From: Kofleriaceae bacterium | GTDB taxonomy: Bacteria; Myxococcota_A; Polyangia; Haliangiales; Haliangiaceae | Direction: 5' to 3' | DNA: 64,000 bases | Assembly (NCBI GenBank): GCA_965215005.1 | Contig: CBDCCZ010000003.1 | Coordinates: 1-64,000 of the forward strand | In this document: in pieces, positions 14,143-64,000 of the stretch | Numbering within the stretch: the stretch's first letter is position 1 | How the letters are laid out: every line of letters starts with the position of its first letter | Program-made: the position numbers and the translations under genes | The notes under the pieces: generated by a model | Seen by the model: only the letters and a program-made list of their open reading frames with translations | Databases searched by the model: none | Told to the model about the DNA's origin: nothing

Positions 14143-14149
14143 AGCACCC

Positions 14150-16587: not shown

Positions 16588-16604
16588 ATTGACGTTTCGT
16601 CAAT
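16588..16604. promoter_or_regulatory. Palindromic operator overlapping a -35-like hexamer of the TA locus
   Basis: ATTGACG-TTT-CGTCAAT perfect inverted repeat containing TTGACG, in an AT-rich patch 22 nt before the toxin-like ORF. Confidence 0.6.
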
Positions 16605-16626
16605 GTTAGGCTAACTCTAGCTTTAG

Positions 16627-17255: not shown

Positions 17256-17314
17256 AAGCTTCGCTGTCACCGGCGGGAACGCGACTCGCAACGCCGGCTC
17301 GCTGCGCTCGAATG

Positions 17315-18885
<1,571 letters not shown>

Positions 18886-18889
<4 letters not shown>

Positions 18890-19998: not shown

Positions 19999-20239
19999 CG
20001 GCGGTAAAACGATGAGCGCTGCAGCGAGGCAGAGGGCCTGTTCCCACCGCAGCGTGTCGATGAACGATAGCCGGTGGCGCGCAGCCAAACAAGTCGCGTT
20101 GCGGCGCACCGACACCGCCGCACGTGCACGCTGAGTCGCTTCCCGCCGCTCCTCCTGCGCGAGCCACGCGACGTCGACTAGGCCAGATTTTTGGCCTGGA
20201 GAGATAGCCGCTCGCAGTTGCTCGGATGCGACTGCCAGC

Positions 20240-20923: not shown

Positions 20924-20960
20924 GTCGCTTCCCCCAAAGCGGCAGTGGAGCGCTATTCTC

Positions 20961-21914: not shown

Positions 21915-21971
21915 CCAGCCCCCACGGTACCGCGGTTGACCCGCGCCGTCGAGAAAGCTATTACCCGGATA

Positions 21972-34000: not shown

Positions 34001-35261
34001 CCGTTAGACGGTACTGCGCGAGCTGACCTGGTGCGAGCACGGCGGGTAGGCTTACGGGCTCGAGGAGCTCGAGGGTGAAATCTTCGACATTGTCGAGCGC
34101 GATCGCGCCGAGCGTCCAAGCAGCGGAGCCGATGTTTTCGATCGTGAACGTCTGCGCCACCGGCGGCTCGCACACGCCGATGGCGCCATAGTCGAAGCTT
34201 TGCGGCGTAACCCGCACGGCAGTGCCAAGGCCGGTTCCAGACAGCACCACGCTCTGCACCCCATCGGCCAAGCCGATGTTTAGCGCCCCTTCAAACTCGC
34301 GGGCAGCCGTCGGCGTGAAGGTAACTCCCAAGCTGGCCGTGGCACCTGGCACCAGCACCAGCTGCCCCGGAGGCGTCGTGAGCGCAAACTCCGCGATCGA
34401 GGTCGCAATGGACTCGATAGTGACAGCGGCCTCGCCGTCGTTGCGCAGCATCACCGGCACTTCCTGGGAGGCAACGCCCACCGTCACCCCGCCGAACATC
34501 ACCGCCGCCGGCGTCACCGTGAGCCCTGCGGTGGCCGTAGCAGTGACGGTGATGACCTCGAGAGGCTCGACGGGGTCATTGGCTCGCACCGTGATGGCTC
34601 CGTCGCGCACGCCGGCGGCTAGCGGCTGATACGTCACGACGAGCGCGGCGGTTTCGCCAGGTTCGAGGAGCAACCCGAGGCCGGGGTCAAAGCCGCTCAC
34701 GCTGAAGTCGGCAACGCCTGCATAATCGACAGCGTCGATCATGAGTGGACTATCGCCGGTGTTGGCGAGCTCCACCGTCGCCGTACGCATCGCGGAGCCG
34801 ACCCGAGCCGCCCCAAAGACGACCGCTTGCGGCGAGACGCTGAGCTCGGGCGCCGAGCCTATGCCAGTGACGGCAACGGCAATGGCTTGATCCATCGGGT
34901 CGGGGTCGTTGTTAGGCAGCTGCACCGAGCACGACCGAGCGCCGCGGGTGGTGGGCGTCAGCTCTACGCGGTAATCCACTGCTTCGCCATTGGCCAACCG
35001 CTGCGGCGCGGCTGGAGTGATCGCTACATCGAGGCAGTCGCCGCTAAGCTGCGGTGTGTCGATGCGCAGGGGCCCGGCATCGAGATTCTCCGCGCGCACC
35101 ACCGCAATGCGACTGTCTCCTACCGCGACCACGCCGAAGTCGACAGTCATTGTCGATAGCCGTATGTCGTCGGCTAGCGCCGTGCGTTCGCCAGCGGCAA
35201 GCGCCACAAAACACGACAGCGCGGCGGCCCAACGCGCAAACGGGGCAAAGTGAGTCATCAT
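31086..35261 (-). CDS. Large surface protein: seven Ig-like (ASH/choice-of-anchor D type) repeats, internal MYXO-CTERM, beta-barrel, TSP3 repeats, OmpA-like domain
   Basis: Signal peptide (ALA-D); repeats of V.P..V.FG.V.VG...N.G...L.I; GGGC..hydrophobic..RR; DxDGDG...D.CP...ED.DGF.D.DGCP repeats; C-terminal RA..V..WL...GIAAERL..G.G...P..N.RIE. Confidence 0.88.
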   Translation of the reverse strand: MMTHFAPFARWAAALSCFVALAAGERTALADDIRLSTMTVDFGVVAVGDSRIAVVRAENLDAGPLRIDTPQLSGDCLDVAITPAAPQRLANGEAVDYRVELTPTTRGARSCSVQLPNNDPDPMDQAIAVAVTGIGSAPELSVSPQAVVFGAARVGSAMRTATVELANTGDSPLMIDAVDYAGVADFSVSGFDPGLGLLLEPGETAALVVTYQPLAAGVRDGAITVRANDPVEPLEVITVTATATAGLTVTPAAVMFGGVTVGVASQEVPVMLRNDGEAAVTIESIATSIAEFALTTPPGQLVLVPGATASLGVTFTPTAAREFEGALNIGLADGVQSVVLSGTGLGTAVRVTPQSFDYGAIGVCEPPVAQTFTIENIGSAAWTLGAIALDNVEDFTLELLEPVSLPAVLAPGQLAQYRLTAAPRTVGIRRATVTITTDITGQRVVMADAVVTGTAADLAVSAAVVDFGVQDVQAENPATRELTITNTGDDLTVRALRIEGRGAGVYALASPPALPLELAAGASVTIALRYRPTMASAGEAEARLIIEADATCGALASIPLTGRGIDRNVSLPEPVVEFEPTLRNPSEPRRAQVRVANTGDAPLEISQIVIEGADAGAFVLLSAATLRIAPGETESIEVGFAPSVANAAPLEAFLILTSDDRDTPMARVTLRGRGVLPNVALSADAIDLGRVGVGIPVRLSELGAALRLVNMDATESYVVRQVRVVDTSERPIGARVVSLGPDFGLPPMTGVDLDVELVARRPGGFEVFVEIYLANDPERVSFARVRGEAIAVEVRGGGCRVGGDGGLGGVLALLVLVLLRRQLLLSILTGLAAWAIGNGLARADVSRNLELQNTRAAATVEGGMFAVEAPGVAPDGAYAFSLGMGFLHNPLVVEAGSEMTDVPVRSRAVAELAVAYALLDRFEVGAMVPMLVQRGDAPTFSGVEPAGGTSLGDIALHGKGLIAANPMLSLAASVTLTIPTNSQDAFAGSPDPTAHARIIAGVKTTRLELVINGGARARQSTRFGDVTQGSELTYGFGAAYRVVPALTAVAELLGSVGLVDDADGVRPLEVLGGARYRVTRELAVMAGGGRGLLPGIGVAEFRALVSVRFSPGAKPIEPILTAEVRRRLREQADDDYDGIVNVLDRCPARAEDRDGFADDDGCPEEDDDGDGIGDAADVCPRQPEDIDGYEDTDGCPDLDNDGDGLADAVDRCPSEQEDQDGFEDQDGCPDPDNDHDGVPDAVDQCATAAETINGNADDDGCPDAGDVLVMVTAERLELFEPIRFRGRSAELVPESFNLLGQVAATLRAHADIEQVRVVAHVHPRGRRDQALAEQRAEVVREWLVQWGIAAERLSSEGAGSTQPLMPVGQRGAARVNDRIELVIGVSPDASP

Positions 35262-35406
35262 GTACAAAGCTCCAGCGCGAGGGAGCGAGTGCTACAACTA
35301 ACAACCGCGCAGCGCGCCAACGATGACTCTATCTTGCAGACCCACGATGCGAAAGCCATGCTGTGGTTCGTCGCACAGCCAACCTGTGGAAAGTATAGGA
35401 GTTCCG

Positions 35407-48761: not shown

Positions 48762-49889
48762 CTAGGGCTGCCAGTGCGGGTCGATGCCTGCGGCTTCGCA
48801 CGCTGCGGCGATCGAGCCGAAGTAGCGTATGCAGGCTTTCCAGAGGCGGGAATCGATGCGCCAGAGGTTGCGCGCGACGTCATCGTTTCGCTCGGCGACG
48901 GCGCGTAGCTCTTCGACGACGCGCTCGGACGTCCAGGAGCGCCTATTGGGCACCGGCAGACCGGCGGCGAGCAGGGCGTCGGTCCAGGTTGGGAAACGCC
49001 GGTAGACGGACCTCTTGAGTCGGGACGGACAGTTTGCGGCGGTGGTCGTAACGGCTAGGTTGTGTTCGACGCGAGAGCGGAGCTCGGTTATCACTTCGTC
49101 GCGGGACATGAGAGGTGGCCGCGCGCTGTGGAAGTTATCGATTCCGGCCGCCTCTGCCGCCTCTCGAGGACCGGCGTAGAACTTCTTCAGCGTCGGCACC
49201 TTGTCCCAAAGCAGGCGCGGCGTCACCTGCGGCACGGTGGTGGCGAGCTGGCGAATCGCCTCGAGAACGTCATCTATGGCGTGAGCTGGCCGGATGATAC
49301 GGATCTCGTCATAGTCGAAGCCGGCGGCCGTCACTGCCTTCTCCCAACTGCCAAAGTAGAAGTAAGCGGCGGAGGCCAAGTCGCTATCCACCCGAGAGGC
49401 GGCAAGAGAGCGGCCTTTGGCGTGCCGCGCTCGAATCGCCTCAACGACCACCTGTTGATCCCACTGCCGGCGCGGCCGCTCGAGGCGTGGCTCGAGCTTG
49501 ATTCCTGCGGCGGCGCGCGCTTTGCGAAATGTGCCGAAGTAGGCCCGCACAGCAGCCGTGAGCGGCTTGTGACTGCTGGCGCGCAGGTTTTTTTCGGTGA
49601 TGCGCATGCCAGCGCGGTCGAGAGTCTGCAGCTCATCGATCACTTTCTGCGCCGTCCAGACGCGATGCCGGTGACGTGCGGGCACCTCCGCGGCCTCGCG
49701 CGCGGCGTCGAGACTGCCGAAGTGAAGGAGAATCGACCTGTAGAGCCCGTGATGAGAGGTCATGAGGTCGCGAGCCGACATCTCGCCGGCTCGGCTCAAA
49801 GCGCGAAGCTGTAAAAGACACTTCTCTGGTGACGCGAGAATCTTCATCCTGCGGTCGGTCGCCCGCTCCGGTCGCGCTTTTAAGCCCAT
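48762..49889 (-). CDS. Protein of six helical repeats resembling the homing-endonuclease-associated repeat
   Basis: Units W..E.V.E.L...L..A...YFGS...A..AAG; GGAG RBS before ATG 49889; no nuclease motif seen. Confidence 0.72.
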   Translation of the reverse strand: MGLKARPERATDRRMKILASPEKCLLQLRALSRAGEMSARDLMTSHHGLYRSILLHFGSLDAAREAAEVPARHRHRVWTAQKVIDELQTLDRAGMRITEKNLRASSHKPLTAAVRAYFGTFRKARAAAGIKLEPRLERPRRQWDQQVVVEAIRARHAKGRSLAASRVDSDLASAAYFYFGSWEKAVTAAGFDYDEIRIIRPAHAIDDVLEAIRQLATTVPQVTPRLLWDKVPTLKKFYAGPREAAEAAGIDNFHSARPPLMSRDEVITELRSRVEHNLAVTTTAANCPSRLKRSVYRRFPTWTDALLAAGLPVPNRRSWTSERVVEELRAVAERNDDVARNLWRIDSRLWKACIRYFGSIAAACEAAGIDPHWQP

Positions 49890-50143
49890 GGTTCTCCGTA
49901 TCGCTCGGCAGTCGCCATCGGCAACCGCGGGCGCAAGGCCGACAGCATGGAAAGTCCGACTGCCGACGTTCGGCATGCTGCAAAGCGACACTCTATAGCG
50001 TCTGTAGTGGCGCGACAATGGCAAGGCTAGTACCCTGCGCGGCTTCGCGCGTGTAGCTCTTGTGCGCCACAAATGCCGCGGCGCCAGTGTGGTCAGGCGA
50101 TACTTCGGCGAGCTCGCGCAGCGTGAGCTGAGGAGACAACACG

Positions 50144-50998: not shown

Positions 50999-51850
50999 CT
51001 AGTCAACAATGGGTGCAAGCGTGGAAACACCAGCGCCCCACCACTCGGTGGCCCCTTGGCGGGTATCGAGGACAGCGCCCGTCGAAGGGTCGATGCGCAC
51101 GATTTGCTTCCCGTCGGTGAATCCATAGACTTGACCGCGCCAAAACCCAATACCAAAGATCTTAGCGACACCGATGTCGCCCAACAGAGTCGCTTCCCAG
51201 GTTGTTGGGTCTATGCGAGCCAGCTGATCAGCGCTCGAACCAGCAACGCGTACCGTGGCTAGGGTGCCAAATCCGCTAACTGAGACGATGTCTCCGCTCG
51301 ACCCAATGGCAGATCCTGAAGCATTGTAGTTGCCAAGCTCGCTGCGAGCACCGGTGTCGGGATCGATCTCCCATACGACACCATCGAAGTCGGCTGCGAC
51401 CAACCGCTCCTCGCTATCGGGGTTCGACAGGTCGATCGGGACGAACGACAGGCTGGTGAGGCCGCCTTCCCCTTGGGGAAACGTCGACAGGTGGGTTACC
51501 TCGGCAGTCTTTCGATCGACTCGAAAGACCGAATTCAACGAGATCGCCAGCATTCTGCCGCTCTTATCGACAGCGAGGTCGGTGATGTTCTCCGGCTCAC
51601 CGGCGAACGCGAAGACTCCCACGCTGGTCGTGCTGAGCGATGCTGGATCGAGCTCGTATAGCTCGGTCGCGCTGTGAGCGTAGACCGACACGAAGTCCGG
51701 AGGATCCACCGGCCCACTGCTCGTGCGCGCGTCGGCACTGGGAGCTCCCGCGTCCGCATCGTCGCGAACATCATCAGAGTCGGTTTGCGAATTGACGGTC
51801 GGCCCACACGCTGAGATGGTCAGCAAGGTGGCGGCGAGAAGGTTGCGCAT
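50999..51850 (-). CDS. Myxobacterial-type lipoprotein, probable beta-propeller
   Basis: GGGAG RBS; lipobox ISAC; repeated L..IDP.TG....LG blades. Confidence 0.78.
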   Translation of the reverse strand: MRNLLAATLLTISACGPTVNSQTDSDDVRDDADAGAPSADARTSSGPVDPPDFVSVYAHSATELYELDPASLSTTSVGVFAFAGEPENITDLAVDKSGRMLAISLNSVFRVDRKTAEVTHLSTFPQGEGGLTSLSFVPIDLSNPDSEERLVAADFDGVVWEIDPDTGARSELGNYNASGSAIGSSGDIVSVSGFGTLATVRVAGSSADQLARIDPTTWEATLLGDIGVAKIFGIGFWRGQVYGFTDGKQIVRIDPSTGAVLDTRQGATEWWGAGVSTLAPIVD

Positions 51851-52062
51851 GTTCGTCTCCCAGAGCCAGAAAGCGCGGAACGTACGCCCTCCGGCCGCTG
51901 GCACCAAGCGATGTTGGTGACGCAACGGCAACACCTGCGAGGAAACGGCGAGACTGCGATGAAACGTTACGTACCTTACGGCTCGCAGCTCGCGCTCGTG
52001 CGTGTAGCGGGAGAGAAGCCGGTTCACCAGAGTGAACCGGCTCCGCAATGAACAACGTCGAC

Positions 52063-55000
52063 TTAGAGCTGCTCGCAGGTCGCGGTGCCGGTCGAGTCGT
52101 CGCAGGTCCCGCTCGGACAGAATAGGCTGCCTTCGGGTCCGCAGTACGAAACGCAGACGTAGCCGTTGATGCTGCCATCGAATTGGCAGTTATCGCCAGC
52201 GCCGGAGGAGATGGAGCAACCTTGGGCGCAGCCGCTGCCCACACAGGCATTGTAGGCGTTGTTCCGAGCGGTCGACCACGACGAGCCTGAGGTCCCGCAG
52301 TTGGGGCAGTTACCAACGTGATAGTCGCCGAGTGCGGCGGCGCAGGTGGGCTCGCAGATGCCGTTGGCGTCGTTGTCCTGCCAATCCGGGCCAATTCCGC
52401 CGACGGCGGGATCGTAGTCGTCGCAGTCCGACGCCAACAGGTAGCCGTCGCCGTCAGCATCTGGATCGCACGCGTCGCCGCGTCCGTCGCCATCGAGATC
52501 GTACTGCTGGAGGTTCGGCACGCCCGGACAGTTGTCCGCGTTCCATATCGCCGCACCGCGCGGCTCGCCATTCCAGACGTCGATCATCGACTCGCAGTAG
52601 AAGATGCCGGGAAGGTCAGACGTGCAGACCTCGAGGCCGTAGACGCCACCGGTCGTGAAGACGAGGTCCGACACGCCATCAAAGTTGATGTCGCCTGCCG
52701 CTAGATTCTTCACATCAGTCGCCGCGACGGTCGGCACGGGTTGACACGTAAAGCTTTCCATCGGCAGGCACATCGACAGCGCTTCCGACTGCGATCCGAA
52801 CACCGATGACGGTAGCTGGTCGCCCATGAAATGATCGAGCACTACCGTTGCCGCTCCCACGCTTCCTTCGAGTGCAAAGGAGTAGTCGCAGGAGAAGGTA
52901 TGCCCGACCGGCTCTTGCCAGCACCCGAGTTGCGTAGCACCCATCGTGCTGTCGGAGATCACGATGTCGAGGAGACGGTCACCATCGAAGTCGGCAAGCG
53001 CCAGGTCGGTCGCCAAGTGCGAGCCGTCGCCCAGGTTCGAGCAGGCGAACCCGCCGTAGCCATCGCCATAACAAACGACGCTGCCGTTGCCCTGCATGAC
53101 TGCTCCAGCCAGATCCACGGTGCCATCGAGGTCGATGTCAGCCGCTGCGATGGAGACCATTGGCCCGACGAACGAGCCGAGTGTGTCGCTACAGAAGAAC
53201 GTTCCATCGCCATTGCCCGAACAAATCTCGAGGGTCCCAATTCCGGCGAACGCGGCGTCGAGCAGGCCGTTGCTGTCAAAGTCGCCCACGGCAACGTCGA
53301 GCGTTTGCGCCGTCGCCGAAGACACCGGCTGGCAGGGCTCGAAGCCGCCGTCGGGACTGCCCAAGCAGATCAAGTTGGTTGCCGATTCTGCGGCGAATAC
53401 CGCATCGACGATCGCATCGCCATTGAAGTCACCGAGAGCCACGTTGCGATTTGGCCCCTCGCTATAGGGTATTTGCACGCAGTCGAGGATCTCGAACGCC
53501 GCGTAGCGACAATAGCGGCTCGGGGAGACCGCATCGGCGACTACGACGCAGCCTTCGTCGCAGACGTAGGGGCACGTGTTGCCAACGTACCGGTCTAGGT
53601 CGTTGCAGTCAGTTGCCGCCAACACGCCATCGGCATCCGCATCGCTGTCGCAAGGGTCGCCGACGCCGTCACCGTCGAGGTCCTGTTGCTCAGGGTTGGC
53701 AACACCGACGCAGTTGTCGATCGCATCGTCGACGCCGTCGCCGTCGCCATCGCCGTCGCACGCATCACCCACACCGTCGGCGTCGCTATCCTCTTGATCG
53801 GGGTTGCTGATGGTCGGGCAGTTGTCGAATGCATCGTCAACGCCGTCGCCATCGGCGTCGGGATCGCAGACGTCGCCTGCGCCGTCGCCGTCCTGGTCGG
53901 CTTGATTGCCGTTTGCCAATACTGGACAGTTGTCGACTGTATCGTTGACTCCATCGCCGTCATCATCCGCATCGCAGACATCACCGATCCCATCCGCATC
54001 CAAGTCTTCTTGATTGGCGTTGGCCAGAATCGGGCAGTTGTCGCTGCCATCCGCGATCCCGTCGCCGTCGTCATCCGCATCGCACACGTCACCCACGCCA
54101 TCTCCGTCGAGATCCGCCTGATTGGCGTTGGCCAGAATGGGGCAGTTGTCGCTGCCATCCGCGATCCCGTCGCCGTCGTCGTCCGCGTCGCAAACGTCAC
54201 CCGCGCCGTCGCCATCTAGATCTTCCTGCCCCGGGTTCGGTATCCATTGGCAGTTGTCGACGACATCATCAATTCCATCGCCGTCGACGTCGGGATCGCA
54301 GGAGTCTTGAATGCCGTCGCCATCGGTATCTGGCGACGAGACTGGGTCGTTGCAAAGATCGCAAGCATCACCAATGCCGTCGCCGTCTTGATCGATTTGG
54401 TCTGGGTTCGAATCGACGGGGCAGTTGTCGCACGCGTCGCCAATCCGATCGCCATCGGCATCGCCCTGCCGCGGGTTGGCAACGGTGCTGCAGTTGTCGC
54501 AGCGGTCGCCAATCCCATCCGCATCGGCGTCAGCCTGCCCGGGGTTGTGAAAGCTCGGGCAGTTGTCGCACGAGCCAGGGATTCGGTCTTGATCCGGATC
54601 GACGCGATCATCGCCGCCCGGGCACTGGTCGCAGGCATCGCCCACGCCGTCCTCGTCGCTGTCCATCTGCGAGGTGTTCGGCTCGCTCGGGCAGCTGTCG
54701 ACGGCGCCGCACACGCCGTCGCCGTCGCCGTCACCGCCGGTGCTAGCCGGACACGCGTCGCAGGTAAGCCCACAGCTCGATTCCGCCAGCGCCAAGCAGC
54801 TCTGAGACCAACCATCTTCACAACAGCTCGCATCGAGGTCGCAAACGCACTGAGCGACTTCTTGCTCGCCGCAGCCGAGCGCGGCATCGCCGTCGGCGAC
54901 GCAACAGTCGCCTTCGCAGCTACCGCAGTCGGTCGCGCAGCTGGCGCAGTTCTCCCCCTGCGACCTATCGAACGGGCTCGATTCGGTCCAGCGCTCGCAA

Positions 55001-58000
55001 ACGAAGTCGCCGCAGACTGGCGCGGAGCCGCAGTCGCCCGCGCACGTAGCGGTGGTCTCACCTTCCGAGCACACGCCATCGCCGCAGGCACACGTGCCGC
55101 AGTCGAGCGCGCAGGTGCTGCACGACTCGCCGTCGCCCGCGCGGCACACGCCGTCGCCGCAGGTGTCGGCGCAAGCGCCGCAATCGGCGGCGCAGGTGGT
55201 ACACGTCTCGCCATCGGTGCGGCTGCAGATCGCATCGCCGCAAGTCGGAGGAACCTCACAAAAGCCGCCAGAGAAGCCGCCGGCGCAGTCGCAGCCGTTC
55301 TCGGTGCAGGTCCCGTTACCCGAGCAGTCGGGCCCGCAGACGCAGTCGCCGCCGTCCCAATCGAGAGACGCGCACGCGGCGAGAGCATCGCAGGTGCCGT
55401 TGCCGAGCAGCGTCGCGCGAATCGTGCACTTGCCATTGCAGTCGCGGGTGTAGCCAGCCGGGCACACCGGCCGCACACACTCACCATCGTCGAAGTTGTG
55501 CAGCTCGCAAGCGAAGTTGGGGCCCGCGCTGCCGTCATCGCACCTGCCATCGGATAGCGTTTCGGAGCTGTCGAAGCAGGCGCCGTCGCAGTCGGCAATT
55601 TGACCCGGAGGACAGAATTCTGGCTCGGGAGCCGCGCAGTCACCAAAATCTGCAGCGACCTCGGCGGCGCCACCGCGACCGGTAAAGTCGGAGAGGAACA
55701 CGCGCATGTAGATCTCGCCGAGACCACGCGCGTCGATCAGCCGGATGGGGTTGTTTTGTGCATCGAGCTTGGGATCTCCAGCAGCGTTGCGCAGGTAGAT
55801 CTTCTCGACGTCCAGGTAGTGGAAATCGATCGGCTGCTGGAGCACGAACGGCAGCGGCGCCCCGGTACGAAACTCCACCGTCTCCTCGTTGCTCAAATAC
55901 ATGCCACGGGGCCAAAGGAGCGCACCGGGCATCAGCGTCCCTTCGGCCACGCCACTGCCGCTACCGAGATAGAGCACGGCCGCGTAGCTTTCATCGTTGA
56001 GCACGTCGATGGTGACTTGCCAAAACCCCGCTTTGAGCTCGCCATACGGTCCCGATGGCTCCGGCACGCACGATAGCGCCGGTGCGCGGCTGTCGGTCTC
56101 GCAAGCATCGCCGGTGCCGTCGCCATCGCTATCGACTTGCTGCGGGTTTGGCACCCACGGGCAATTGTCTCGAACACCCGGACCTTTATCAGGCACGCCA
56201 TCTTGATCGACATCGCCGTCAGCGCAGTCGGGCATCCCGTCGGCATCCACATCCGAGTAACCGGGCGAGCCTGGTAATCCGCAGGCGCAATCGGTCGGCT
56301 CGGAATAGAGCACCGGAATCTCCGCATGTACGAAACGCGGCTCGGTCGGATCGAGACGCACCTCCGCAAACATCAATCGTTGCAAGGGACCCTGATTGGC
56401 CACCACCACCCGCCGATCCCAGTTTCCGACCACCTCACCGTTCCCACCGATTTCGGCGTCGCGCTGGGAGAAAATACGCACCTCGCGCGTGCGCTGCTCG
56501 ACCAGGCCGGCAACGACTCTGGCGCTGGCAACGCGATCAGCCGTCGACGGATCGAGCGCACCGGCGATTTCGGGTCCCGCCTGCGCATTGCAGCTGGCAC
56601 CAGCAGCGACTGGATCAGCGCTGGCCGCTGCCAACGTGTACGTGGCGCCAGGTAGCAGCGACATCAGTGGCAACGCCTCGTTGTCGCGCTCGACCGCTTG
56701 GCCCTCGAATCCCGGCGGATTGGGGGCGCCATCGGCCAGCGCATAGAACGCTTTGAGGAAATCTCGCCACGGAAGACCCTCCCGAACCACATCGTAGCCG
56801 TTTCGGTAGAACGCCTCTTCGGTGGGGAAGTACACGCTCAGGCCGGTTGAGTCACTCTTGAGTCGGCCATAGGCCTCGGCGGCGCGCAGCTGCTGGAGCG
56901 CCGCGACCAGGGCAAGGCGGTGCGGCTCGAACGTCGGGTTTCGAGCCGCGAGCGCGGTCGCAAAGTCGCCCATGTCGATCATCTGAAAATCACTGGTGGG
57001 ATCGACGTGATAGCCGTAGCGCGTAACCTTGTCGCGTGCCGCAGCAATGTCAGTCTTGGCGGCGTCGATATTGGCTGCGAGAGCGCCGGCAAACGCGGCA
57101 AACGCGTCGCGAAGCGCCGCCAGGGCTTCGAGATCGAGCAGGTTCAACGTCACCTTCATATGCGTCCGGTTGGATCGAGCGTGCTGATAGAAGCTCTCGA
57201 CCACCTCACGGCCCAGCTCCGGAGCGGCCATGGCAGTGTTGGCTGACAGGCTGCTGAGAAATGCCGTGTAGTCCCAACCGTGTCCCGGCTCGAGCTCCTC
57301 GCTAGCGACGTAATAACGGGTCAAACTGCTAACCCCATCGGCCATGACATAGGTGCTCATCAAGCAAGCATCGAAACCAATGAGATCCAGCCCGTTGAGA
57401 CCGGCAGCCTCGACGCCAGTGCGAAGTGCCGCTTCGATTTCCGCCTGATCGAGCTGATCGTGGCCGGCGTCGTCGTCACCGCCGTATCCCTGCCATGCGT
57501 TGCCGTGGTTCCAGAGCACGAGAAACCGCCGCTCCGCCGGGAAGTTTCCGAAGCCCCACTCGATGAAGTCGGAGAGAGTATTGGGGTCGCCGGTGTTGCT
57601 CTCGCCAAGGTCTTCGAGCTCCTCGAGTGCGCCGCTGCGCACGCGGAATCGCTTCATCGTCTTCCAATCGGCAACCCCGCCAACACCGAGCTCGTAGTAG
57701 CCCGATGCGCGATCCATCTGAACCAGCACGTTGACGTCATCGCTGATCGTCGCGCCCAGCATCTCGTTCAGATCGTCGATCGCGAACTTCTCGAGATTGT
57801 TATCGGCGGCCATGTAGACCAAAACGGTCCATGCCGCGGGCGCAGGCGCGGCATCGGGCTCCGGCGGAGTGCTTGCGTCTGGCTGCAAAGGTCCGGCGTC
57901 TACGGAGCCAGGCGGCATCGTCATCGCGTCGCGATCCGCTGGGGGATCGCCGGATGACTCGCCAGAGCCACCACCGCACGCGGCGGCGAGCGAGGCCACG

Positions 58001-58032
58001 AGACCAAAAAGAAGCGGTAGACGTCGGGTCAT
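52063..58032 (-). CDS. Clostripain-family (C11) cysteine peptidase lipoprotein with TSP3, LNR-like, EGF-like, Cys-rich and FG-GAP repeats
   Basis: Lipobox AAAC; WTVLVYMAADNNLE, LWNHG (His), IGFDACLM (Cys), ASEELEPGHGWDY, GLSVYFP; many D.DGDG.GD.CDNCP...N..Q repeats; GDFNGD repeats. Confidence 0.92.
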   Translation of the reverse strand: MTRRLPLLFGLVASLAAACGGGSGESSGDPPADRDAMTMPPGSVDAGPLQPDASTPPEPDAAPAPAAWTVLVYMAADNNLEKFAIDDLNEMLGATISDDVNVLVQMDRASGYYELGVGGVADWKTMKRFRVRSGALEELEDLGESNTGDPNTLSDFIEWGFGNFPAERRFLVLWNHGNAWQGYGGDDDAGHDQLDQAEIEAALRTGVEAAGLNGLDLIGFDACLMSTYVMADGVSSLTRYYVASEELEPGHGWDYTAFLSSLSANTAMAAPELGREVVESFYQHARSNRTHMKVTLNLLDLEALAALRDAFAAFAGALAANIDAAKTDIAAARDKVTRYGYHVDPTSDFQMIDMGDFATALAARNPTFEPHRLALVAALQQLRAAEAYGRLKSDSTGLSVYFPTEEAFYRNGYDVVREGLPWRDFLKAFYALADGAPNPPGFEGQAVERDNEALPLMSLLPGATYTLAAASADPVAAGASCNAQAGPEIAGALDPSTADRVASARVVAGLVEQRTREVRIFSQRDAEIGGNGEVVGNWDRRVVVANQGPLQRLMFAEVRLDPTEPRFVHAEIPVLYSEPTDCACGLPGSPGYSDVDADGMPDCADGDVDQDGVPDKGPGVRDNCPWVPNPQQVDSDGDGTGDACETDSRAPALSCVPEPSGPYGELKAGFWQVTIDVLNDESYAAVLYLGSGSGVAEGTLMPGALLWPRGMYLSNEETVEFRTGAPLPFVLQQPIDFHYLDVEKIYLRNAAGDPKLDAQNNPIRLIDARGLGEIYMRVFLSDFTGRGGAAEVAADFGDCAAPEPEFCPPGQIADCDGACFDSSETLSDGRCDDGSAGPNFACELHNFDDGECVRPVCPAGYTRDCNGKCTIRATLLGNGTCDALAACASLDWDGGDCVCGPDCSGNGTCTENGCDCAGGFSGGFCEVPPTCGDAICSRTDGETCTTCAADCGACADTCGDGVCRAGDGESCSTCALDCGTCACGDGVCSEGETTATCAGDCGSAPVCGDFVCERWTESSPFDRSQGENCASCATDCGSCEGDCCVADGDAALGCGEQEVAQCVCDLDASCCEDGWSQSCLALAESSCGLTCDACPASTGGDGDGDGVCGAVDSCPSEPNTSQMDSDEDGVGDACDQCPGGDDRVDPDQDRIPGSCDNCPSFHNPGQADADADGIGDRCDNCSTVANPRQGDADGDRIGDACDNCPVDSNPDQIDQDGDGIGDACDLCNDPVSSPDTDGDGIQDSCDPDVDGDGIDDVVDNCQWIPNPGQEDLDGDGAGDVCDADDDGDGIADGSDNCPILANANQADLDGDGVGDVCDADDDGDGIADGSDNCPILANANQEDLDADGIGDVCDADDDGDGVNDTVDNCPVLANGNQADQDGDGAGDVCDPDADGDGVDDAFDNCPTISNPDQEDSDADGVGDACDGDGDGDGVDDAIDNCVGVANPEQQDLDGDGVGDPCDSDADADGVLAATDCNDLDRYVGNTCPYVCDEGCVVVADAVSPSRYCRYAAFEILDCVQIPYSEGPNRNVALGDFNGDAIVDAVFAAESATNLICLGSPDGGFEPCQPVSSATAQTLDVAVGDFDSNGLLDAAFAGIGTLEICSGNGDGTFFCSDTLGSFVGPMVSIAAADIDLDGTVDLAGAVMQGNGSVVCYGDGYGGFACSNLGDGSHLATDLALADFDGDRLLDIVISDSTMGATQLGCWQEPVGHTFSCDYSFALEGSVGAATVVLDHFMGDQLPSSVFGSQSEALSMCLPMESFTCQPVPTVAATDVKNLAAGDINFDGVSDLVFTTGGVYGLEVCTSDLPGIFYCESMIDVWNGEPRGAAIWNADNCPGVPNLQQYDLDGDGRGDACDPDADGDGYLLASDCDDYDPAVGGIGPDWQDNDANGICEPTCAAALGDYHVGNCPNCGTSGSSWSTARNNAYNACVGSGCAQGCSISSGAGDNCQFDGSINGYVCVSYCGPEGSLFCPSGTCDDSTGTATCEQL
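54011..54215. repeat. Near-identical 108-bp tandem unit within the TSP3 array
   Basis: TGATTGGCGTTGGCCAGAAT.GGGCAGTTGTCGCTGCCATCCGCGATCCCGTCGCCGTCGTC starts at both 54011 and 54119. Confidence 0.88.
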
Positions 58033-58156
58033 GGAGCGCGTTTCCTTCATTGAGGAGCTGGCCGTCGGTGGGCGGCAGCAAGCACGTGATTCGTTTCGTA
58101 TGGCAGCGGCACGACGGAGCTCGAGCAAGGGCATCTACCCATCGTTTCGCAATCGG

Positions 58157-60091
58157 CTAGGGAAGCTTGTTTGCGGGCACGTACTGGCCAATCGCCTTGA
58201 GCATGCGCGGATCGCGCTCCTCGCCGTATTGCTTGGCGAGGGCATCCACCGCCGCCGCAGACGATGCCGCCGCCGCGCCAACGAGATGCACGTAGCTTGC
58301 GCGCACCAGCGGGCTTCCTTCATCGCCCAGCCGTGAGACGGCTGCGCTCCAGACCTTGTCCGGCGGTGGTTGCTTCGCCAGCTTGGCCTGATCGGCGAAG
58401 GTCACTGCGAGAAAGGCACGTTGGCGTTCGCCCTTCTCGCCATCTAGAAGACCGGCGAAGAGATCCTCGGTGGCCTCGGGAGGCATGCGTTTGACGGCAC
58501 CGTAGGCATGCTGCCGAACCAGCTCGCTATCCGACTCGAAGAACGGCGCGAGCTCATTGGCGAAGCTCGGATGGCCCGAATTGTGGATTGCATCGAGCGC
58601 AGCGGTCACTTCCACAGGTCCATCACCAGCGGCGAGTTGCTCGCGAATCGCCTGCCGCGCGGTTTCTGCGAGCTGTGGGTGAGACGTCCGCACGTTGTGC
58701 TCGAGCGTGCCGACGCCAAAGCTTGCGGCGTTGCGCAATTGTTGCTCCTGGCTTGCATCGTCGAGACCGGCGCCAACCCGCGACATCTGAACCAGCGCCG
58801 CGAGAGCCTCGTCGTTGGGCTCATCGATGTCGGGCAGCGCCACTGCCGCGCGCATGCGGTTCTCGGGCTGCAGTGCAGCGTCCGCAACACTTTCAATCAA
58901 TACAGTGCGGGCTTCGGGAGTACCGGCGCGCTCGAGGCCAAAGAACACCGCCGAGTGCATCTCGTTTGCCACCTCGCCGTCGCGCACCAGCGCGACCAAC
59001 TCGGCTGCCAACTGCGGCTGAGCGCGCAGCAGCTGCGCCAGCATGTAACCGACTGTGGCGTGCGCGTCGGGGTTGTCGCGCAGCATCGCGCGCGCCATTT
59101 CCATCGCCTCATCGAGCGGCAGCGTCTTGAAACGAGCCGGGGGTTCAGGCTGTTTCTTCGCCATGCGCTCGGCAGGCATAATTCCGCTGGTCCACGCGAG
59201 CGCCTTTAGGTCGGGCAGCGGGCGTCGCTCGGCGTGGTCGCGAACAGCGACTTTGAGTTGTACCGTAACGTCGGCGAGCAGCTGTCCGTCTGTCGATAGC
59301 ACCAGCCGTTCGGTGCCGCTCACCTGCGCCATCCAGACGCCAGCCGCATCCACAACCGCGCTCATCGTGCTCGCGCGGACGCGAATCGAGAGGCTCTCGT
59401 CGGGCTCGGTGGCACCGCGAGCATCGGTGATGACGCCCGGATACACGTGAATGTAGCCAGACTTGATTTTTGAGACGCGGCGGGCGTTGGCGTCTTCGAG
59501 GTGATACTGCGACCAATACTTGCCCGATAGGTCGTGCTCGAGCGCTCGCCAGCTCGGCTGCGCACTCGCAGGATGGAGCACCACCTGAGAGCTCTGCAGC
59601 ATGCCGCGCAGCTGATTTCTTGCCGCCGGAGCGACATCGTTTGCGAAGCCGAAGTCGCGAAACCGACACGTGCGGTCGATCGTGACCGCGAACGGGCGAG
59701 TGATTTGCTCGATGAGCTCGGCGTCGGCGACCCCGACCGTGCTATCGAGCTCGAACTCGACCCCGAGGGTCGCCACGCCGTCGGCGACGACGATAGCGCG
59801 CATGTGGAGAAGACCGCGCATCGTCACGCGCTGTGCGTCGAGGCTGGGCTGCTGCCGAGGATCGGAGGTGGGCATCACGGCGCGGGCGTTGAGCTTGGAC
59901 TCGGCCTCGAGCTCGAAGTCGTAGCTCCGCGCCTGCCCCGGCTCGAATACGCAAGCGAGCGGCGCGGGGCTGCGGCCATTGTTGCGGTCGTCGCCGAGCT
60001 TCCATAACACCGTGGCCACCATCGCAACGGCCAGAAAGCTGGCTCCGGCCAGCAAGAAGCGCATGCGTCTCGCTTTGCTGTTTTTGAACAT
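58157..60091 (-). CDS. Membrane-anchored/exported protein: beta-rich N-half plus HEAT-repeat C-half (vitellogenin/LLTP N-module-like by inference)
   Basis: AGGGGAG RBS; N-terminal TM; FEPGQARSYDF, PFAV, EHDLSGKY.S.Y; HEAT-like GLERAGTPEA..L, ALDAIHNSG, LVRQHAYGAV. Confidence 0.7.
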   Translation of the reverse strand: MFKNSKARRMRFLLAGASFLAVAMVATVLWKLGDDRNNGRSPAPLACVFEPGQARSYDFELEAESKLNARAVMPTSDPRQQPSLDAQRVTMRGLLHMRAIVVADGVATLGVEFELDSTVGVADAELIEQITRPFAVTIDRTCRFRDFGFANDVAPAARNQLRGMLQSSQVVLHPASAQPSWRALEHDLSGKYWSQYHLEDANARRVSKIKSGYIHVYPGVITDARGATEPDESLSIRVRASTMSAVVDAAGVWMAQVSGTERLVLSTDGQLLADVTVQLKVAVRDHAERRPLPDLKALAWTSGIMPAERMAKKQPEPPARFKTLPLDEAMEMARAMLRDNPDAHATVGYMLAQLLRAQPQLAAELVALVRDGEVANEMHSAVFFGLERAGTPEARTVLIESVADAALQPENRMRAAVALPDIDEPNDEALAALVQMSRVGAGLDDASQEQQLRNAASFGVGTLEHNVRTSHPQLAETARQAIREQLAAGDGPVEVTAALDAIHNSGHPSFANELAPFFESDSELVRQHAYGAVKRMPPEATEDLFAGLLDGEKGERQRAFLAVTFADQAKLAKQPPPDKVWSAAVSRLGDEGSPLVRASYVHLVGAAAASSAAAVDALAKQYGEERDPRMLKAIGQYVPANKLP

Positions 60092-60587
60092 TGCTCCCCT
60101 GTTCTACTCGTAAGGTCGAGTGCGCGAAGGCGCCTTCATTCAGCGAAGGGCTACGGCACGAGACTCGGTATCGGCTGCGAGCGGTGATCGCTAAAGGAAC
60201 TTTCGCGGCCCGGCAGCGCGAAAACGTGCCAGGTCACCCACCAGGTATTGAGCGCAGCGAACGCCGCGGGACCCCCAATGTCTACTCGCTCGTAAGGACT
60301 CCTAGTACGCCGCCGCGGGATTGATGACGCAGAAATCCGCCGCCCCGATGCGGGGCAAGGGCGGCAGATTTCTGCTGCTCAGGCGCCCCCTTCGGCGTCT
60401 CCCCAAGCGATTGTTGTTTTTCTAGCGGTTCACGACTTCCGCCGTGAACCACTAGCCGCACGAGGAATAAATCGCCGAGGAGCGACTTTTCCCCTTTGGT
60501 CTGCAGCACATCGTCCGATTCCGGTGGGACTGCGTAGCTCGGCTGCGCGAACAACCACTCGATTGTGGGGGGCGAAGAAATCAAGGC

Positions 60588-63500
60588 ATGAGTCGATTCA
60601 AACATTCATGGATGTTCAGCGCGTTCATAGCGCTGAGTGCCTGCGGCGGTGACAGCACCGACACGTCCGCGGACGGGCCAACGTGCGGCGAAGGGACCGT
60701 CGAACGAGACGGGATGTGCGTCGCCGTGGGCGAGCCCGATCCGGGCTCCACCTGCGGCGAAGGTACGGTGGAAGTAGAGGGCGAATGCGTTGCCGCCTCT
60801 GATTCCCCTCCAGCCGTGTCCGGATTCACGGTCACCCAGCTGTCGCTCACGGCCAAAGGACGGCCGATCAACGGCGGAGAAGGAGATCCGGTTCTGGCCG
60901 TCGACCATCCCGTCGAGGTGACCGTGGGAATCCGCTACGAAGGCGACGCCATGGAGCTGCCGCTGGTCATGGCTCTCGGCGAAGCCGCGGGCAGTGGCGA
61001 CGGCACCGGCTTGTGTTTGCTCGGCGGTCTGGCCGTCGACCATCCCGGCACCGGTGAGGTCGTGGCGACCGGTCGTTTCGTGCTTTCGGAAACCTGCCTC
61101 GCCGACAACCAGGAAGGCGACACTGCCGGTGCGGCGGTGTCGTCGCGGACGATGCTGCCGGTGTTGTTCGTCGATCCGGACGACACGCTCGGCATCGTTG
61201 GTGACGTGCCCAAGGGCGTCATCTTCTCCGCCGAGCGGCTCGCCGACGCGCAGGTCGCGTTTCAGGCCCAGGCCGAGGCAATCGCCAATGGCGAGCAGCC
61301 GATGGCGCTCGATCCCGAACACGTATCGCTGCTCGCCTGCCATCGATCGGGGCACCCCGACGGCAGCTGCGGCGTCGAGCTGGCCGTGGAGGAGAGCGAT
61401 GGCATCGACTTCGAGCTGACCGCGATGGCGCTCGAGAGCTCGGTGCTGGTTCTCAACCGCTGCTTCGCAAGCCAAGCCGAGCTCAATGCCTACGCCGCCG
61501 ATCCGGCGCGGGGCGAAACGCTTCCGACCGGCTATATCTGCAACCGGTCGATCGTGCGCGGCTTCGATGACGAAGGCAATCCGCTGCCCAAGGGCAACGA
61601 GAAAGACTTCACCTATGGCGCGGCCGACGTGGACGTGGACGTGACCGTGACCTCGTTTGGTCTCGACGACTCGATCATCGAGAGCGCCGACGAGCTCATG
61701 GCGCTCGGCACCGAGACCGACGACGGCTTCCAGCTCAACGTCGCACCCGAAGACATCTCGAACAACGCGCTCGGCGCCGACGGCTCCTACACCATCCAGT
61801 ACTTCCTGCGGCCGGTGAGCGCGCCGCTTCAGACCGCGCAGGACGCGTCGCTGGCGGCGGCGATCGAGCGCCTCGGTGGCCTCGATACCCTCGAGGGCAA
61901 CGGCACGCTCGCGCGTCTGTATCTGCATGCCGAAGGCGAGCAGGCCAAGGCCGGCGATGAGGCGACGGTGGGCGGTCAAGCGCAGGCCTCGCTCGAGGAG
62001 ACCCTGTCGATTCCGCAGGTGCCGACCGAGTACAGCCACGGCCTCTACGTCGAGAACGACTGCGGTCGCTTCAACGACCCGACCCGTCGCCCTGGCGACT
62101 ACAACCCCGAGGTCCCGGCTTGCAACCCGGCGATCAATCCGCGCGATGCTCTGCTCTACGGCGCGATGAGGGACGCCAACGACTTCGTCGTCCTGGCATG
62201 CGTCACCGGCACCATCGACGCGGCTCTGCCCGGCTCCGATGATCTCGACAACAACTGCGTCGAGCAGCCGCTGCGCGTGCTTCGCGCCGAGACCCGCCGC
62301 TCGTCCTGGGCCGCCGCCTACCCGGAAGCAACCCCGGCGGAGAACCCGTACCGCGACGATCCCGACGCGGCCGCGCCCGGACGCACCCGTGACGAGCTAT
62401 TCGCGGCCGGCGACGCCGACGGCTACGCGGCCAACTACGACTGGAACCAGCGCTTCGGCAATAACGAAATTGGCCTCGATCTCCACGCCCACAGCCGCAA
62501 CGGCGTGAGCCTGCAAGGCGCCGGGTCGGACAACGAAGCCAAGCTCAGCCTCAGCAGCAATACCTTCTCGTTCAGCCTCGAGCTGGTGCGCATGTGGGCC
62601 CAGGCCGACGCGCGCTCGATCGTCATCGGCAGCTTCTACGACTTTGGCCTCAGCTTCTTCGGCGCCAAGCTGTGGGGCGAGCGCCAAGAGGTGCCCGAGT
62701 ACCATCGCGAGTGGGACTGGAACGTCACCAAGGAGTGGGGCAAATCGAAGAGCATCTTCGTCAAGATCGCCTGGGTCGATGTCGGCGTGAAGGTCGCCGG
62801 CCAGTCCGGCGTGCGCCTCAACCTCGACATCATCGGCCGCGAGCTCGAGGACTGCTCGTCGCCGGAGTGCAACGCCCTGCGCCAGCTCTACAGCGAGCAG
62901 GGAACCGACACGGTCGGCGAGGCATCGATCACGCTCACGCCGTACGGCAACATCAACGCGAACATCTTTGCCGCGGTCAGCATCCAGGTCGCACGCGCCG
63001 GTGCCGCCGGCGACCTCACCATCGCCAACCTCGAGCTTCCGGCCCGTGGCGCGCTCACCTTCGGCCTGGTCGGCAGCATTCAGGATCTGCAGAATGCGCG
63101 CTTGCAGCTGGCGGCGTTTGCCAATCTCCAGCTGAACTCGCAATTCTTGAATGGTCGTTTGTATCTGTTCGCCGAAAACCGTTCCATCCACTGGTGCTCG
63201 AGCTGGGGCATTCCCTATCCGTGCGGTCTGAGCTGGAACAAGTTCTGGGACCAGACGATCGCGAGCTGGAACGGCTGGAGCTACAACCAGGTTTTGTGGG
63301 CCTCGCCCACCTTCCACGCTGCGCTCACCCGCAACGGTGTCGAAGGCGGCAGGATCGATCATTTCGCCGGGAACTACCAGCTGCGCGCACTGCACTCCAA
63401 CAAGTGCATGGACTCCTACAGCGACGGCAACACCAAGCAGTGGGGCTGCGTCGGTGCTCCGCACCACGTATGGCGTTTCGAGGACATGGGTGACGGTTCC

Positions 63501-63773
63501 TACCGGATCATCAACAACCAGTACAACAAGTGCCTCGATGTGGCCGGTGCGGGTACCCACAACGGTGCCAACGTTATCACCTGGAGTTGCCACAACGGCG
63601 CCAATCAGCGCTTCCGACTCCTCTCGCGCGGCGGCAGCGACTATGCGCTCCAGAACGTTCATAGCGGTCGGTGTGTAGAAGTTGGCGGTTACCGTCATGA
63701 AGACAACGCCAACATGAACCAGTGGGACTGTCATTACGGTCCGAACCAGATCTGGCGGTTGTTTCGCCAGTAG
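60588..63773 (+). CDS. Large lipoprotein with acidic N-region, amphipathic beta-strand region and C-terminal ricin-type beta-trefoil lectin
   Basis: Lipobox LSAC; two TCGEGTVE..G.CV repeats; ricin repeats NKCMD..QWGC, NKCLDV..NQRF, GRCVEV..QWDC..NQIW. Confidence 0.85.
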   Translation: MSRFKHSWMFSAFIALSACGGDSTDTSADGPTCGEGTVERDGMCVAVGEPDPGSTCGEGTVEVEGECVAASDSPPAVSGFTVTQLSLTAKGRPINGGEGDPVLAVDHPVEVTVGIRYEGDAMELPLVMALGEAAGSGDGTGLCLLGGLAVDHPGTGEVVATGRFVLSETCLADNQEGDTAGAAVSSRTMLPVLFVDPDDTLGIVGDVPKGVIFSAERLADAQVAFQAQAEAIANGEQPMALDPEHVSLLACHRSGHPDGSCGVELAVEESDGIDFELTAMALESSVLVLNRCFASQAELNAYAADPARGETLPTGYICNRSIVRGFDDEGNPLPKGNEKDFTYGAADVDVDVTVTSFGLDDSIIESADELMALGTETDDGFQLNVAPEDISNNALGADGSYTIQYFLRPVSAPLQTAQDASLAAAIERLGGLDTLEGNGTLARLYLHAEGEQAKAGDEATVGGQAQASLEETLSIPQVPTEYSHGLYVENDCGRFNDPTRRPGDYNPEVPACNPAINPRDALLYGAMRDANDFVVLACVTGTIDAALPGSDDLDNNCVEQPLRVLRAETRRSSWAAAYPEATPAENPYRDDPDAAAPGRTRDELFAAGDADGYAANYDWNQRFGNNEIGLDLHAHSRNGVSLQGAGSDNEAKLSLSSNTFSFSLELVRMWAQADARSIVIGSFYDFGLSFFGAKLWGERQEVPEYHREWDWNVTKEWGKSKSIFVKIAWVDVGVKVAGQSGVRLNLDIIGRELEDCSSPECNALRQLYSEQGTDTVGEASITLTPYGNINANIFAAVSIQVARAGAAGDLTIANLELPARGALTFGLVGSIQDLQNARLQLAAFANLQLNSQFLNGRLYLFAENRSIHWCSSWGIPYPCGLSWNKFWDQTIASWNGWSYNQVLWASPTFHAALTRNGVEGGRIDHFAGNYQLRALHSNKCMDSYSDGNTKQWGCVGAPHHVWRFEDMGDGSYRIINNQYNKCLDVAGAGTHNGANVITWSCHNGANQRFRLLSRGGSDYALQNVHSGRCVEVGGYRHEDNANMNQWDCHYGPNQIWRLFRQ

Positions 63774-63838
63774 CTCGGCCGTGACTCGTTAGACGATGTC
63801 CCGGGTGCGGCATGTGCCCGGGCATCGGTGCTCATCAG

Positions 63839-63882
63839 AGGGCCGCTCGGATGTTCTGTCCGAGCGGCCCTTCCGTATTTTT
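63839..63882 (+). terminator. Intrinsic terminator after the lectin lipoprotein
   Basis: 13-bp perfect stem AGGGCCGCTCGGA / TCCGAGCGGCCCT followed by TCCGTATTTTT. Confidence 0.75.
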
Positions 63883-64000
63883 AGCGCCGATCCAAGGAGA
63901 CTCCGTGAACTTGCGCAACGGCCCGGCGTTTCCATCCAACGCCGCAATCGTCACCTCAGTCGCCCGCGCTGGAGCCCGCGTCGCTGGGCTCGCGTTCTTG

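Follow-up and report, generated by a model that had tools for sequence, protein, structure and literature searches.

A conserved gene pair of Myxococcota as a candidate split vitellogenin/MTP-like module with lectin and protease context

Introduction

The large lipid transfer proteins (LLTPs), namely MTP (for microsomal triglyceride transfer protein), lipovitellin/vitellogenin and apolipoprotein B (apoB), have been treated in one account as an animal invention tied to multicellularity and lipid transport (PMC12214520), and another presents them as animal proteins (PMC13540394). The domain description available for human MTP places a barrel at residues 21–297, a helical domain at 298–603 and the lipid-binding sheets at 604–884 (PMC6717300), and animal vitellogenins are described as being cut by proteases into separate chains (PMC12214520). 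Here we describe a bacterial locus that bears on this family. It lies in the first 64 kb (hereafter the window, 64,000 nucleotides) of a 388-kb contig (CBDCCZ010000003.1, here C3) from the 6.2-Mb, 93% complete genome of a Kofleriaceae bacterium (assembly GCA_965215005.1, Myxococcota), and includes three neighboring genes: a giant lipoprotein protease of the clostripain (C11) family, P0001; a beta-rich protein with HEAT-like repeats, P0002, which represents the family called P2; and a lipoprotein ending in a lectin, P0003, which represents the family called P3.

Full-text literature searches returned no paper on bacterial members of the LLTP superfamily. A protein atlas contains look-alike clusters in Bdellovibrionota, Myxococcota, Bacteroidota and Pseudomonadota, in which 40–75% of the members carry the Vitellogenin_N family PF01347, and some bacterial members are already labelled "lipid transport protein domain" in databases. 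Because such members are already tagged, what is new here is the biology and not the bare detection; interest attaches to the division over two genes, to the setting with a lectin and proteases, and to a single-chain relative.

Results

The P2–P3 pair, and not the trio, is conserved

All three reading frames are present, and their G+C content at third codon positions (0.74–0.83 in each) supports coding. A sequence-only reading of the window had described a protease with an intact His/Cys dyad, a beta/HEAT partner and a ricin-type lectin lipoprotein; the open reading frame (ORF) list with translations, Pfam searches and alignments agree with this description. Export of all three products, which that reading also proposed, is likewise predicted, from the lipoboxes LAAAC in P0001 and ALSAC in P0003 and from the N-terminal hydrophobic segment of P0002; these export signals were called by eye and with regular expressions.

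Of 401 genomes sampled from the phylum, 41 have relatives of P0002, whereas the six genomes from the bacterium's own taxonomic family have none, which indicates a patchy distribution. Loci were collected at the 20 best P2 places, each with as much as 20 kb of surrounding sequence, and then at 20 weaker ones. Among the best loci, a P3-like ORF adjoins the P2-like ORF in 15 of 20 by BLASTP with P0003, in 16 of 20 by all-against-all clustering, and in 18 of 20 by a profile of the P3 family; 15 of these 18 positive rows had been included in building the profile, and the loci L038 and L044 were not in it. A partner matching the P3 beta domain adjoins P2 in ten of the 20 weaker loci, so that the pair is detected by profile in 28 of 40 loci. 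Gene order varies while adjacency is kept: P3–P2 is the commonest arrangement, P2–P3 also occurs, and the two genes are divergent here and in loci L038 and L060. A search for related loci with a narrower P3 alignment retrieved eight close loci of Polyangiales type.

The conserved unit is therefore the P2–P3 pair. The three-gene module of the sequence-only reading holds in part, in that the families do co-localize in other genomes far above chance, with the pair as the core; its claim that the C11 protease belongs to the module is not supported in that form, as described below. A mirror-tree comparison of 105 pairs drawn from 15 P2/P3 pairs gave a Spearman coefficient of 0.55 and a Pearson coefficient of 0.98, values which we do not count as evidence because near-identical loci inflate the Pearson coefficient and shared descent could explain both.

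In four of the weaker loci (L089, L099, L102 and L104), two large ORFs of about 1180–1320 and 1300–1520 aa stand in the place of P3, upstream of the P2 homolog. These ORFs are interrelated across loci and not detectably related to P3; profile–profile comparison with P3 reached a probability of only 19%.

P2 carries a Vitellogenin_N match

P0002 is composed of a 19-residue hydrophobic segment at residues 12–30, without a lipobox, followed by a beta-rich domain at about 40–350 and a HEAT-like superhelix at about 350–640. A hydrophobic segment of about 19 residues, following basic residues and likewise without a lipobox, was found in 20 of 21 P2 family members, and fits a signal anchor. Cys47 and Cys142 of P0002 are invariant in the family, as expected for an exported domain.

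The Pfam search matched residues 381–525 of P0002 to Vitellogenin_N with 45.1 bits against a cut-off of 24, and HEAT_2 was matched as well. A six-frame search of the genome with PF01347 recovered the same coordinates with 40.7 bits, again above the cut-off. Vitellogenin_N was matched by ten of 21 P2 family members, and in the phylum sample of 401 genomes PF01347 matched 32, with 21 passing the cut-off and nearly all hits in frames of 600–740 aa; at E ≤ 1e-3 none of 14 control genomes was matched. Since proteins with HEAT repeats match the family near its cut-off, a hit to the helical part by itself is a weak sign of LLTP kinship. What speaks for the link is that four P2-type proteins also match the barrel half, with the barrel positions collinear with the helical part. 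One of them is Haur_5045, described below; the others are P0005, which is 45% identical to P0002 and matches profile positions 71–527; the P2 protein G265:C55, with positions 25–156 plus 235–519 and 64 bits together; and G190:C219, with positions 73–150 plus 472–582. A sequence search against solved structures with P0005 and with the G265 protein gave no significant match. P2 is read as the front module, barrel plus helix, of a vitellogenin/MTP-like protein.

P3 is a family of predicted lipoproteins with an amphipathic beta domain

The lipobox ALSAC places the predicted lipid-bearing cysteine of P0003 at Cys19; the public gene call begins at M9 and gives 1053 aa. From the N-terminus, the protein consists of two Cys-hairpin repeats (residues 33–68), two family-specific domains, an Arg-rich loop, the beta domain and the ricin lectin. 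The family is large: a search for it retrieved 1910 cluster representatives with E ≤ 1e-3, a number that falls to 598 with E ≤ 1e-10. Of its members, at least 17 of 30 carry a lipobox. No Pfam model covers the P3 core.

The beta domain, of about 300 residues, is made of long strands of alternating polarity, as seen from a period-2 pattern of hydrophobicity, and closes with the motif C..YPCG..W..WD..IA.W.GW. Ahead of it, at about residues 566–608 of P0003, lies the Arg-rich insertion loop; at this position the ricin-bearing clade of P3 has 35 inserted residues, with Arg, Pro and Asp abundant among them. Behind the beta domain, residues 927–1058 of P0003 match PF14200 with 100.8 bits and PF00652 with 62.1 bits, and the region contains three QxW-like motifs (HVWRF, QRFRL and QIWRL). 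By these matches the C-terminus is a ricin-type beta-trefoil lectin, for which sugar binding is predicted. The ricin module occurs in three of 30 family members, all in the clade of P0003. Behind the cores of P3 proteins we found ricin, B_lectin, C-type lectin, FG-GAP, FGE-sulfatase and somatomedin B modules, a variety that fits a constant body with exchangeable aiming modules.

The two Cys-hairpin repeats, of the form CGxGTxxxxGxCV, are encoded at 60684–60791. This module accounts for most of the weak hits that the P3 profile obtained in 115 of 401 genomes (profile positions 12–80), and it appears to be a module that is widespread at the N-termini of the phylum's lipoproteins and not yet catalogued.

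A natural fusion joins a P2-like module to the P3 beta domain

When plasmids were searched in translation with P0002, a single record came up, Haur_5045 (ABX07675.1), from plasmid pHAU01 of Herpetosiphon aurantiacus DSM 785, an 862-aa protein to which the depositors gave the name "Lipid transport protein domain". Residues 119–562 of Haur_5045 match positions 163–586 of the P2 profile with 88 bits, and residues 621–857 match positions 486–747 of the P3 profile (A2) with 37 bits, down to the end motif of the beta domain. Among 201 shuffled or reversed copies of the protein, the best scores were 3.0 bits for the P2 profile and 1.2 bits for the P3 profile. The barrel part of Vitellogenin_N (profile positions 83–243) is matched with 36 bits by itself, and a profile of the P2 beta domain matches residues 125–203 with 11.9 bits, compared to 3.7 bits for the best shuffle.

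The order of barrel, helix and beta domain in Haur_5045 is that of MTP, and the size is similar. This suggests, though it is no proof of a shared fold, that the P3 beta domain occupies the position of the lipid-holding sheets in MTP. With both parts in one natural chain, Haur_5045 is our strongest evidence that the two proteins work as a single body, and it makes the earlier idea of P2 as a mere helper of the protease unlikely. A plasmid search with the P3 beta domain gave no match. Two other long frames positive for PF01347 (G369:C25 and G024:C2) were tried as candidate fused forms and rejected, both being plain HEAT proteins.

Metzincin X is a frequent partner and the C11 giant a recurrent neighbor

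Clustering of the loci brought out a further protease family, X, whose members are lipoproteins some 420 aa long that contain the metzincin motif HExxHxxGxxH. It occurs in 11 of the 20 best P2 loci and is present in this genome and in the relatives L057, L059, L060, L061 and L062. The last of these is labelled Pseudomonadota, yet a phylum-level search from its genome gave the same genomes as one from the genome of the window, so that label and genome taxonomy disagree. The motif is found in nine of ten X-family ORFs, the exception (L034) being an ORF cut off by the edge of its fetched locus; Pfam and NCBIfam matches over the zinc motif are all below cut-off. At least six of the ten ORFs have a lipobox. 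In the present genome, X is the second gene after P3, behind an FG-GAP/ASPIC lipoprotein gene, and the sequence-only reading missed this commoner protease partner because it lies past base 64000.

The C11 giant directly follows P2 in three loci (L034, L035 and L040) that belong to three different families of the phylum. Thus, X is a frequent partner in this subfamily, and the C11 giant is a recurrent but dispensable neighbor. The fullest version of the cluster that we have seen is in locus L061, where eight co-directional, packed genes (8350–22416) encode X, P3, P2, an FG-GAP/ASPIC protein, a 344-aa lipoprotein, two NHL-repeat lipoproteins and, last, a C11 giant sharing 59% identity with P0001. 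In genome G154, X followed by the C11 giant is located at one contig end (L119, G154:C69) and P3 followed by P2 at another (L049, G154:C46); the two contigs may be neighbors, which would make this a fourth adjacent C11 case.

In P0001 itself, Peptidase_C11 at residues 106–416 scored 162 bits against a cut-off of 25.8. The N-terminal C11 domain is followed by a conserved region to about residue 1125, Cys-rich repeats, TSP_3 and FG-GAP_3; the nine Pfam TSP_3 stretches correspond, by count, to 17 DxDxD-type calcium motifs (thrombospondin type-3). His210 (LWNHGNAW; codon 57505–57507) and Cys257 (FDACLM; codon 57364–57366) align with the catalytic His and Cys of the structures 6n9j (a protein related to clostripain) and 9cip (clostripain), and the dyad is, as judged from this alignment, intact. 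Asp255, two residues ahead of Cys257, aligns with Asp229 of clostripain; that residue and Asp177 of PmC11 are held, in the account consulted, to set the preference for Arg/Lys at P1 (PMC11296011). At the aligned position of the self-cleavage site, a clear Arg or Lys was not seen by eye. The first ATG of the frame is probably not the true start: M29 (58050) or M35 (58032), where the signal peptide with its lipobox begins, is likelier. Orthologs in L034 and L040 are 33–34% identical to P0001 over residues 102–1125/1180 and differ in their C-terminal modules. On P0001 the NCBIfam model of the cell-cohesion protein MtsC scored 306 bits, under its cut-off of 350. The Cys-rich repeats at about residues 900–1040 (about 55000–55450) end in DWDGGDC or FDDGEC and resemble Notch LNR repeats by eye, with no Pfam hit.

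Layout of the locus

The coordinates of the features are given in Table 1. The end of the P0002 frame and the first ATG of the P0001 frame are 22 nt apart, a gap on account of which the two genes are probably transcribed together; the distance to the likelier starts is 106–124 nt. The divergent spacer between P2 and P3 contains a 17-nt inverted repeat at 60329–60375, 94% complementary, with its arms 13 nt apart. A scan of this spacer for sigma-70-like promoters gave zero sites, Rfam gave three matches at E ≤ 1, all far below the gathering scores of their families, and alignment of the spacer with those of relatives L060 and L038 revealed no conserved motif.

Table 1. Features of the locus on contig C3. 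Positions are those of the window unless prefixed with C3.
Feature	Position	Strand	Basis or remark
Beta-propeller-type lipoprotein (DUF6923/DUF4394; start MRNLLAATLLTISAC)	50999..51853	-	directly downstream of C11 gene
P0001, giant C11 lipoprotein, 2023 aa as listed	52063..58134	-	ORF and Pfam
C11 (clostripain-family) catalytic domain, P0001 residues 106–416	56887..57819	-	Pfam PF03415
P0002 (P2), beta/HEAT protein, 644 aa	58157..60091	-	ORF and Pfam
Vitellogenin_N-matching stretch, P0002 residues 381–525	58517..58951	-	profile positions 360–509 of 590
Divergent P2/P3 spacer, 496 nt	60092..60587	.	intergenic
P0003 (P3), lectin lipoprotein, 1061 aa	60588..63773	+	ORF and Pfam
P3 C-terminal beta domain, residues about 600–915	62385..63332	+	conservation and period-2 hydrophobicity
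Ricin-type beta-trefoil lectin (predicted), P3 residues 927–1058	63366..63761	+	PF14200, PF00652
FG-GAP/ASPIC lipoprotein gene, 5' end	63812..64000	+	leaves window (C3:63812-65680)
Terminator-like hairpin, 16-pair stem then T run	63838..63872	+	just 3' of P3
Metzincin lipoprotein X (HELGHYLGLLH)	C3:65725-66972		outside window, after FG-GAP/ASPIC gene

The lipoprotein gene downstream of P0001 is possibly an accessory gene. Its product matches Pfam DUF4394 with 30.4 bits and DUF6923 with 29.7 bits, and weakly resembles (BLASTP, E 3e-6) the product of the ORF directly downstream of the P2 homolog in L046; lipoproteins of NHL/DUF6923 type occur also in the related operon L061.

Three further observations were made along the contig. 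A 1393-aa protein encoded at 31086–35267 on the minus strand combines Ig domains of HYDIN/ASH type with a C-terminal OmpA domain. A 436-aa protein encoded at 48762–50072, also on the minus strand, is built of "homing endonuclease associated" HNH_repeat units. Past the window end, at about C3:67043–71158, lie two adjacent paralogs of 593 and 620 aa (L032 3344–5125 and 5597–7459) that resemble the cytochrome c RoxA, with haem-binding CxxCH motifs and lipoprotein-like starts.

Discussion

Favored reading

We favor, with a probability of roughly 0.55, the reading that P2 and P3 form an exported, split vitellogenin/MTP-like cargo-binding module that is aimed by a lectin and has proteases as facultative partners. 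P2 would be anchored in the inner membrane, facing the periplasm, and would supply the beta-barrel and the helical clamp, while the amphipathic beta domain of the P3 lipoprotein would take the place of the lipid-holding sheets of MTP. Binding of P2 to this domain would create one LLTP-like body in the envelope with a hydrophobic cavity, and the cargo would be hydrophobic, most likely lipid. The ricin lectin could tie the body to a glycan surface, whether of prey, of the matrix or of the cell's own polysaccharide. X and the C11 giant may trim or release the module, with the Arg-rich loop of P3 as one conceivable site, or, just as well, they may be surface hydrolases that are co-regulated with the pair and do not act on it. 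The lipid idea already present in the sequence-only reading gains a basis from the membership of P2 in the Vitellogenin_N family, and lipid binding itself stays a prediction.

A more ambitious form of the same idea is a full envelope counterpart of the animal lipoprotein machinery, in which an inner-membrane half (P2) and an outer-membrane half (P3) would work as a lipid shuttle, matured by dedicated proteases (the metzincin and, in some lineages, the C11 giant) and aimed by exchangeable lectins at glycans of prey or matrix. We regard this form as improbable, at about one chance in five. If true, predatory bacteria would harvest or deliver lipid in this way, with a maturation akin to that by the convertases that cut vitellogenin and apolipophorin, and both the LLTP fold and its proteolytic maturation would have originated before animals.

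Several results weigh against the favored reading. On the side of P2, P0002 itself matches only the helical, unspecific half of Vitellogenin_N, its beta domain taken alone gave no Vitellogenin_N match in any of 18 members and matched no solved structure, and at the permissive threshold of E ≤ 1 two control genomes also match PF01347. In a search of solved structures with the P2 profile, designed HEAT (alphaRep) proteins led and lipovitellin followed with E 4e-4; the helical segment alone matched only designed HEAT proteins, and it resembles bacterial HEAT repeats at least equally. The plain HEAT-repeat protein G369:C25 (L128) matches PF01347 too. On the side of P3, a wide profile found no solved structure at E ≤ 1 and a narrower one gave a single match at chance level (E 6.3), and the families of the animal lipid-binding sheets, PF09172 (Vit_open_b-sht) and PF19444 (MTP_lip_bd), gave no hit at E ≤ 10, whether in this genome, in Haur_5045 or, for five further genomes, at their P3 sites. 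LLTPs have nothing that corresponds to the roughly 560 residues ahead of the beta domain of P3. A search of a large protein collection for longer fused P2 relatives returned only an unrelated HEAT protein, which is weak evidence, and no lipid-metabolism gene was found near the pair within the window. The association with proteases is also loose: X is found in none of the 20 weaker P2 loci, the C11 giant adjoins P2 in only three of 40 loci, and among 20 further close C11 orthologs none had P2 or P3, and one had X, in the fetched flanks, a count that is too low because many contigs are short.

Other explanations of the locus

The strongest competitor, which we also judge unlikely, is a surface or matrix protein island without a role in lipid, with P2 as a HEAT-repeat scaffold and P3 as an adhesin of lectin type, bound to one another or to the envelope. 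The giant TSP3/FG-GAP protease, like the metzincin and the propeller lipoproteins, would then be an adhesion or matrix-remodelling protein of a social or predatory myxobacterium, and the Vitellogenin_N match would reflect an old shared fold at most. The cross-hits between the helical part of PF01347 and ordinary HEAT proteins, together with the many adhesion-type modules around the pair (TSP_3, FG-GAP, ASPIC and NHL, with TSP1, NIDO and RCC1 in orthologs), are the reason that this explanation keeps weight, and it is also consistent with the nearness of P0001 to the MtsC model, with the window's lack of lipid-related genes close by, and with the fact that P3 has no link in sequence to lipid-binding sheets. 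It accounts poorly, however, for the collinear matches to the barrel region of Vitellogenin_N in four P2-type proteins and for the Herpetosiphon fusion with its LLTP domain order and size; moreover, a plain scaffold would not need an amphipathic beta partner that is conserved in 28 of 40 loci.

The claim of the sequence-only reading, that the lectin lipoprotein is set free by the protease, leads to a different picture, a protease-activated lectin toxin, in which P3 would be a tethered pro-toxin or pore former released by the C11 enzyme or the metzincin, with P2 as chaperone, holder or immunity protein. C11 enzymes mature toxins of Bacteroidales: fragipain is described as processing the Bacteroides fragilis toxin and bacteria-targeting toxins (PMC8406203, PMC9308784, bioRxiv 10.64898/2026.08.05.742979). 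This precedent, with the lectin and the Arg-rich loop of P3, is why the picture retains some weight. P0001 shares with clostripain both the dyad and the Asp on which the Arg preference of that enzyme depends, the loop of the ricin clade contains RR and GRTR between the middle and beta domains, the strands of P3 are long and amphipathic, exchangeable C-terminal modules of lectin type are common among toxins, and protease genes recur beside the pair. Yet no Pfam family of toxins or pore formers was matched by P0003 or 29 relatives at E ≤ 0.01; the sole toxin-named hit, CDtoxinA, reached 21.1 bits against a cut-off of 22 and falls inside the ricin lectin. Most P3 relatives have neither the lectin nor the Arg-rich loop, 37 of 40 P2 loci lack the C11 giant, with the further orthologs adding no case in their fetched flanks, and the covalent fusion in Haur_5045 suggests a permanent joint body rather than a toxin with a detachable helper. 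We consider a toxin of this kind quite unlikely, with odds lower than those of the protein island.

Significance

If the split cargo-binding module is borne out, a widespread exported bacterial pair would change the picture of LLTPs as an animal invention and would offer a simple, genetically tractable model of how the LLTP fold holds its cargo. It would also point to a new function in the envelope or in predation in Myxococcota and in other gliding or predatory bacteria, and the protease and lectin neighbors give testable ideas on maturation and targeting.

Comparison with known systems

Among described proteases, P0001 is closest to fragipain, the other C11 proteases of Bacteroidales and clostripain, to which it is tied by membership in family C11, by the His/Cys dyad and by an S1 Asp like that of the Arg-specific enzyme. 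It differs from them as a 2023-aa mosaic of TSP3, FG-GAP and Cys-rich parts, with a facultative link to the pair and no known toxin family adjoining; it is a predicted lipoprotein that adjoins exported candidate substrates.

Haur_5045 differs from the present pair in being a single chain, without the lectin and without any of the N-terminal domains of P3, and it is an uncharacterized protein from another phylum (Chloroflexota), with integrase and transposase genes around it and no protease neighbors annotated. The two are alike in their matches to the profiles of P2 and of the P3 beta domain, in an N-terminal segment resembling a signal, and in the Vitellogenin_N barrel and helix.

Compared to the animal LLTPs (MTP, lipovitellin/vitellogenin and apoB), which are made as one polypeptide, the design seen here is split over two divergent genes, with P2 predicted to be signal-anchored. 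In P3, some 560 residues are added at the N-terminus and a lectin at the other end, and the beta domain lacks a sequence match to PF09172 or PF19444. A partner of the protein disulfide isomerase (PDI) type is not seen here, and the host is a bacterium. The likeness to LLTPs lies in P2, which passes the PF01347 cut-off and whose relatives match the barrel part, in the predicted export that all of these proteins have in common, and in the length of Haur_5045, whose 862 aa compare with a last domain ending at residue 884 in MTP.

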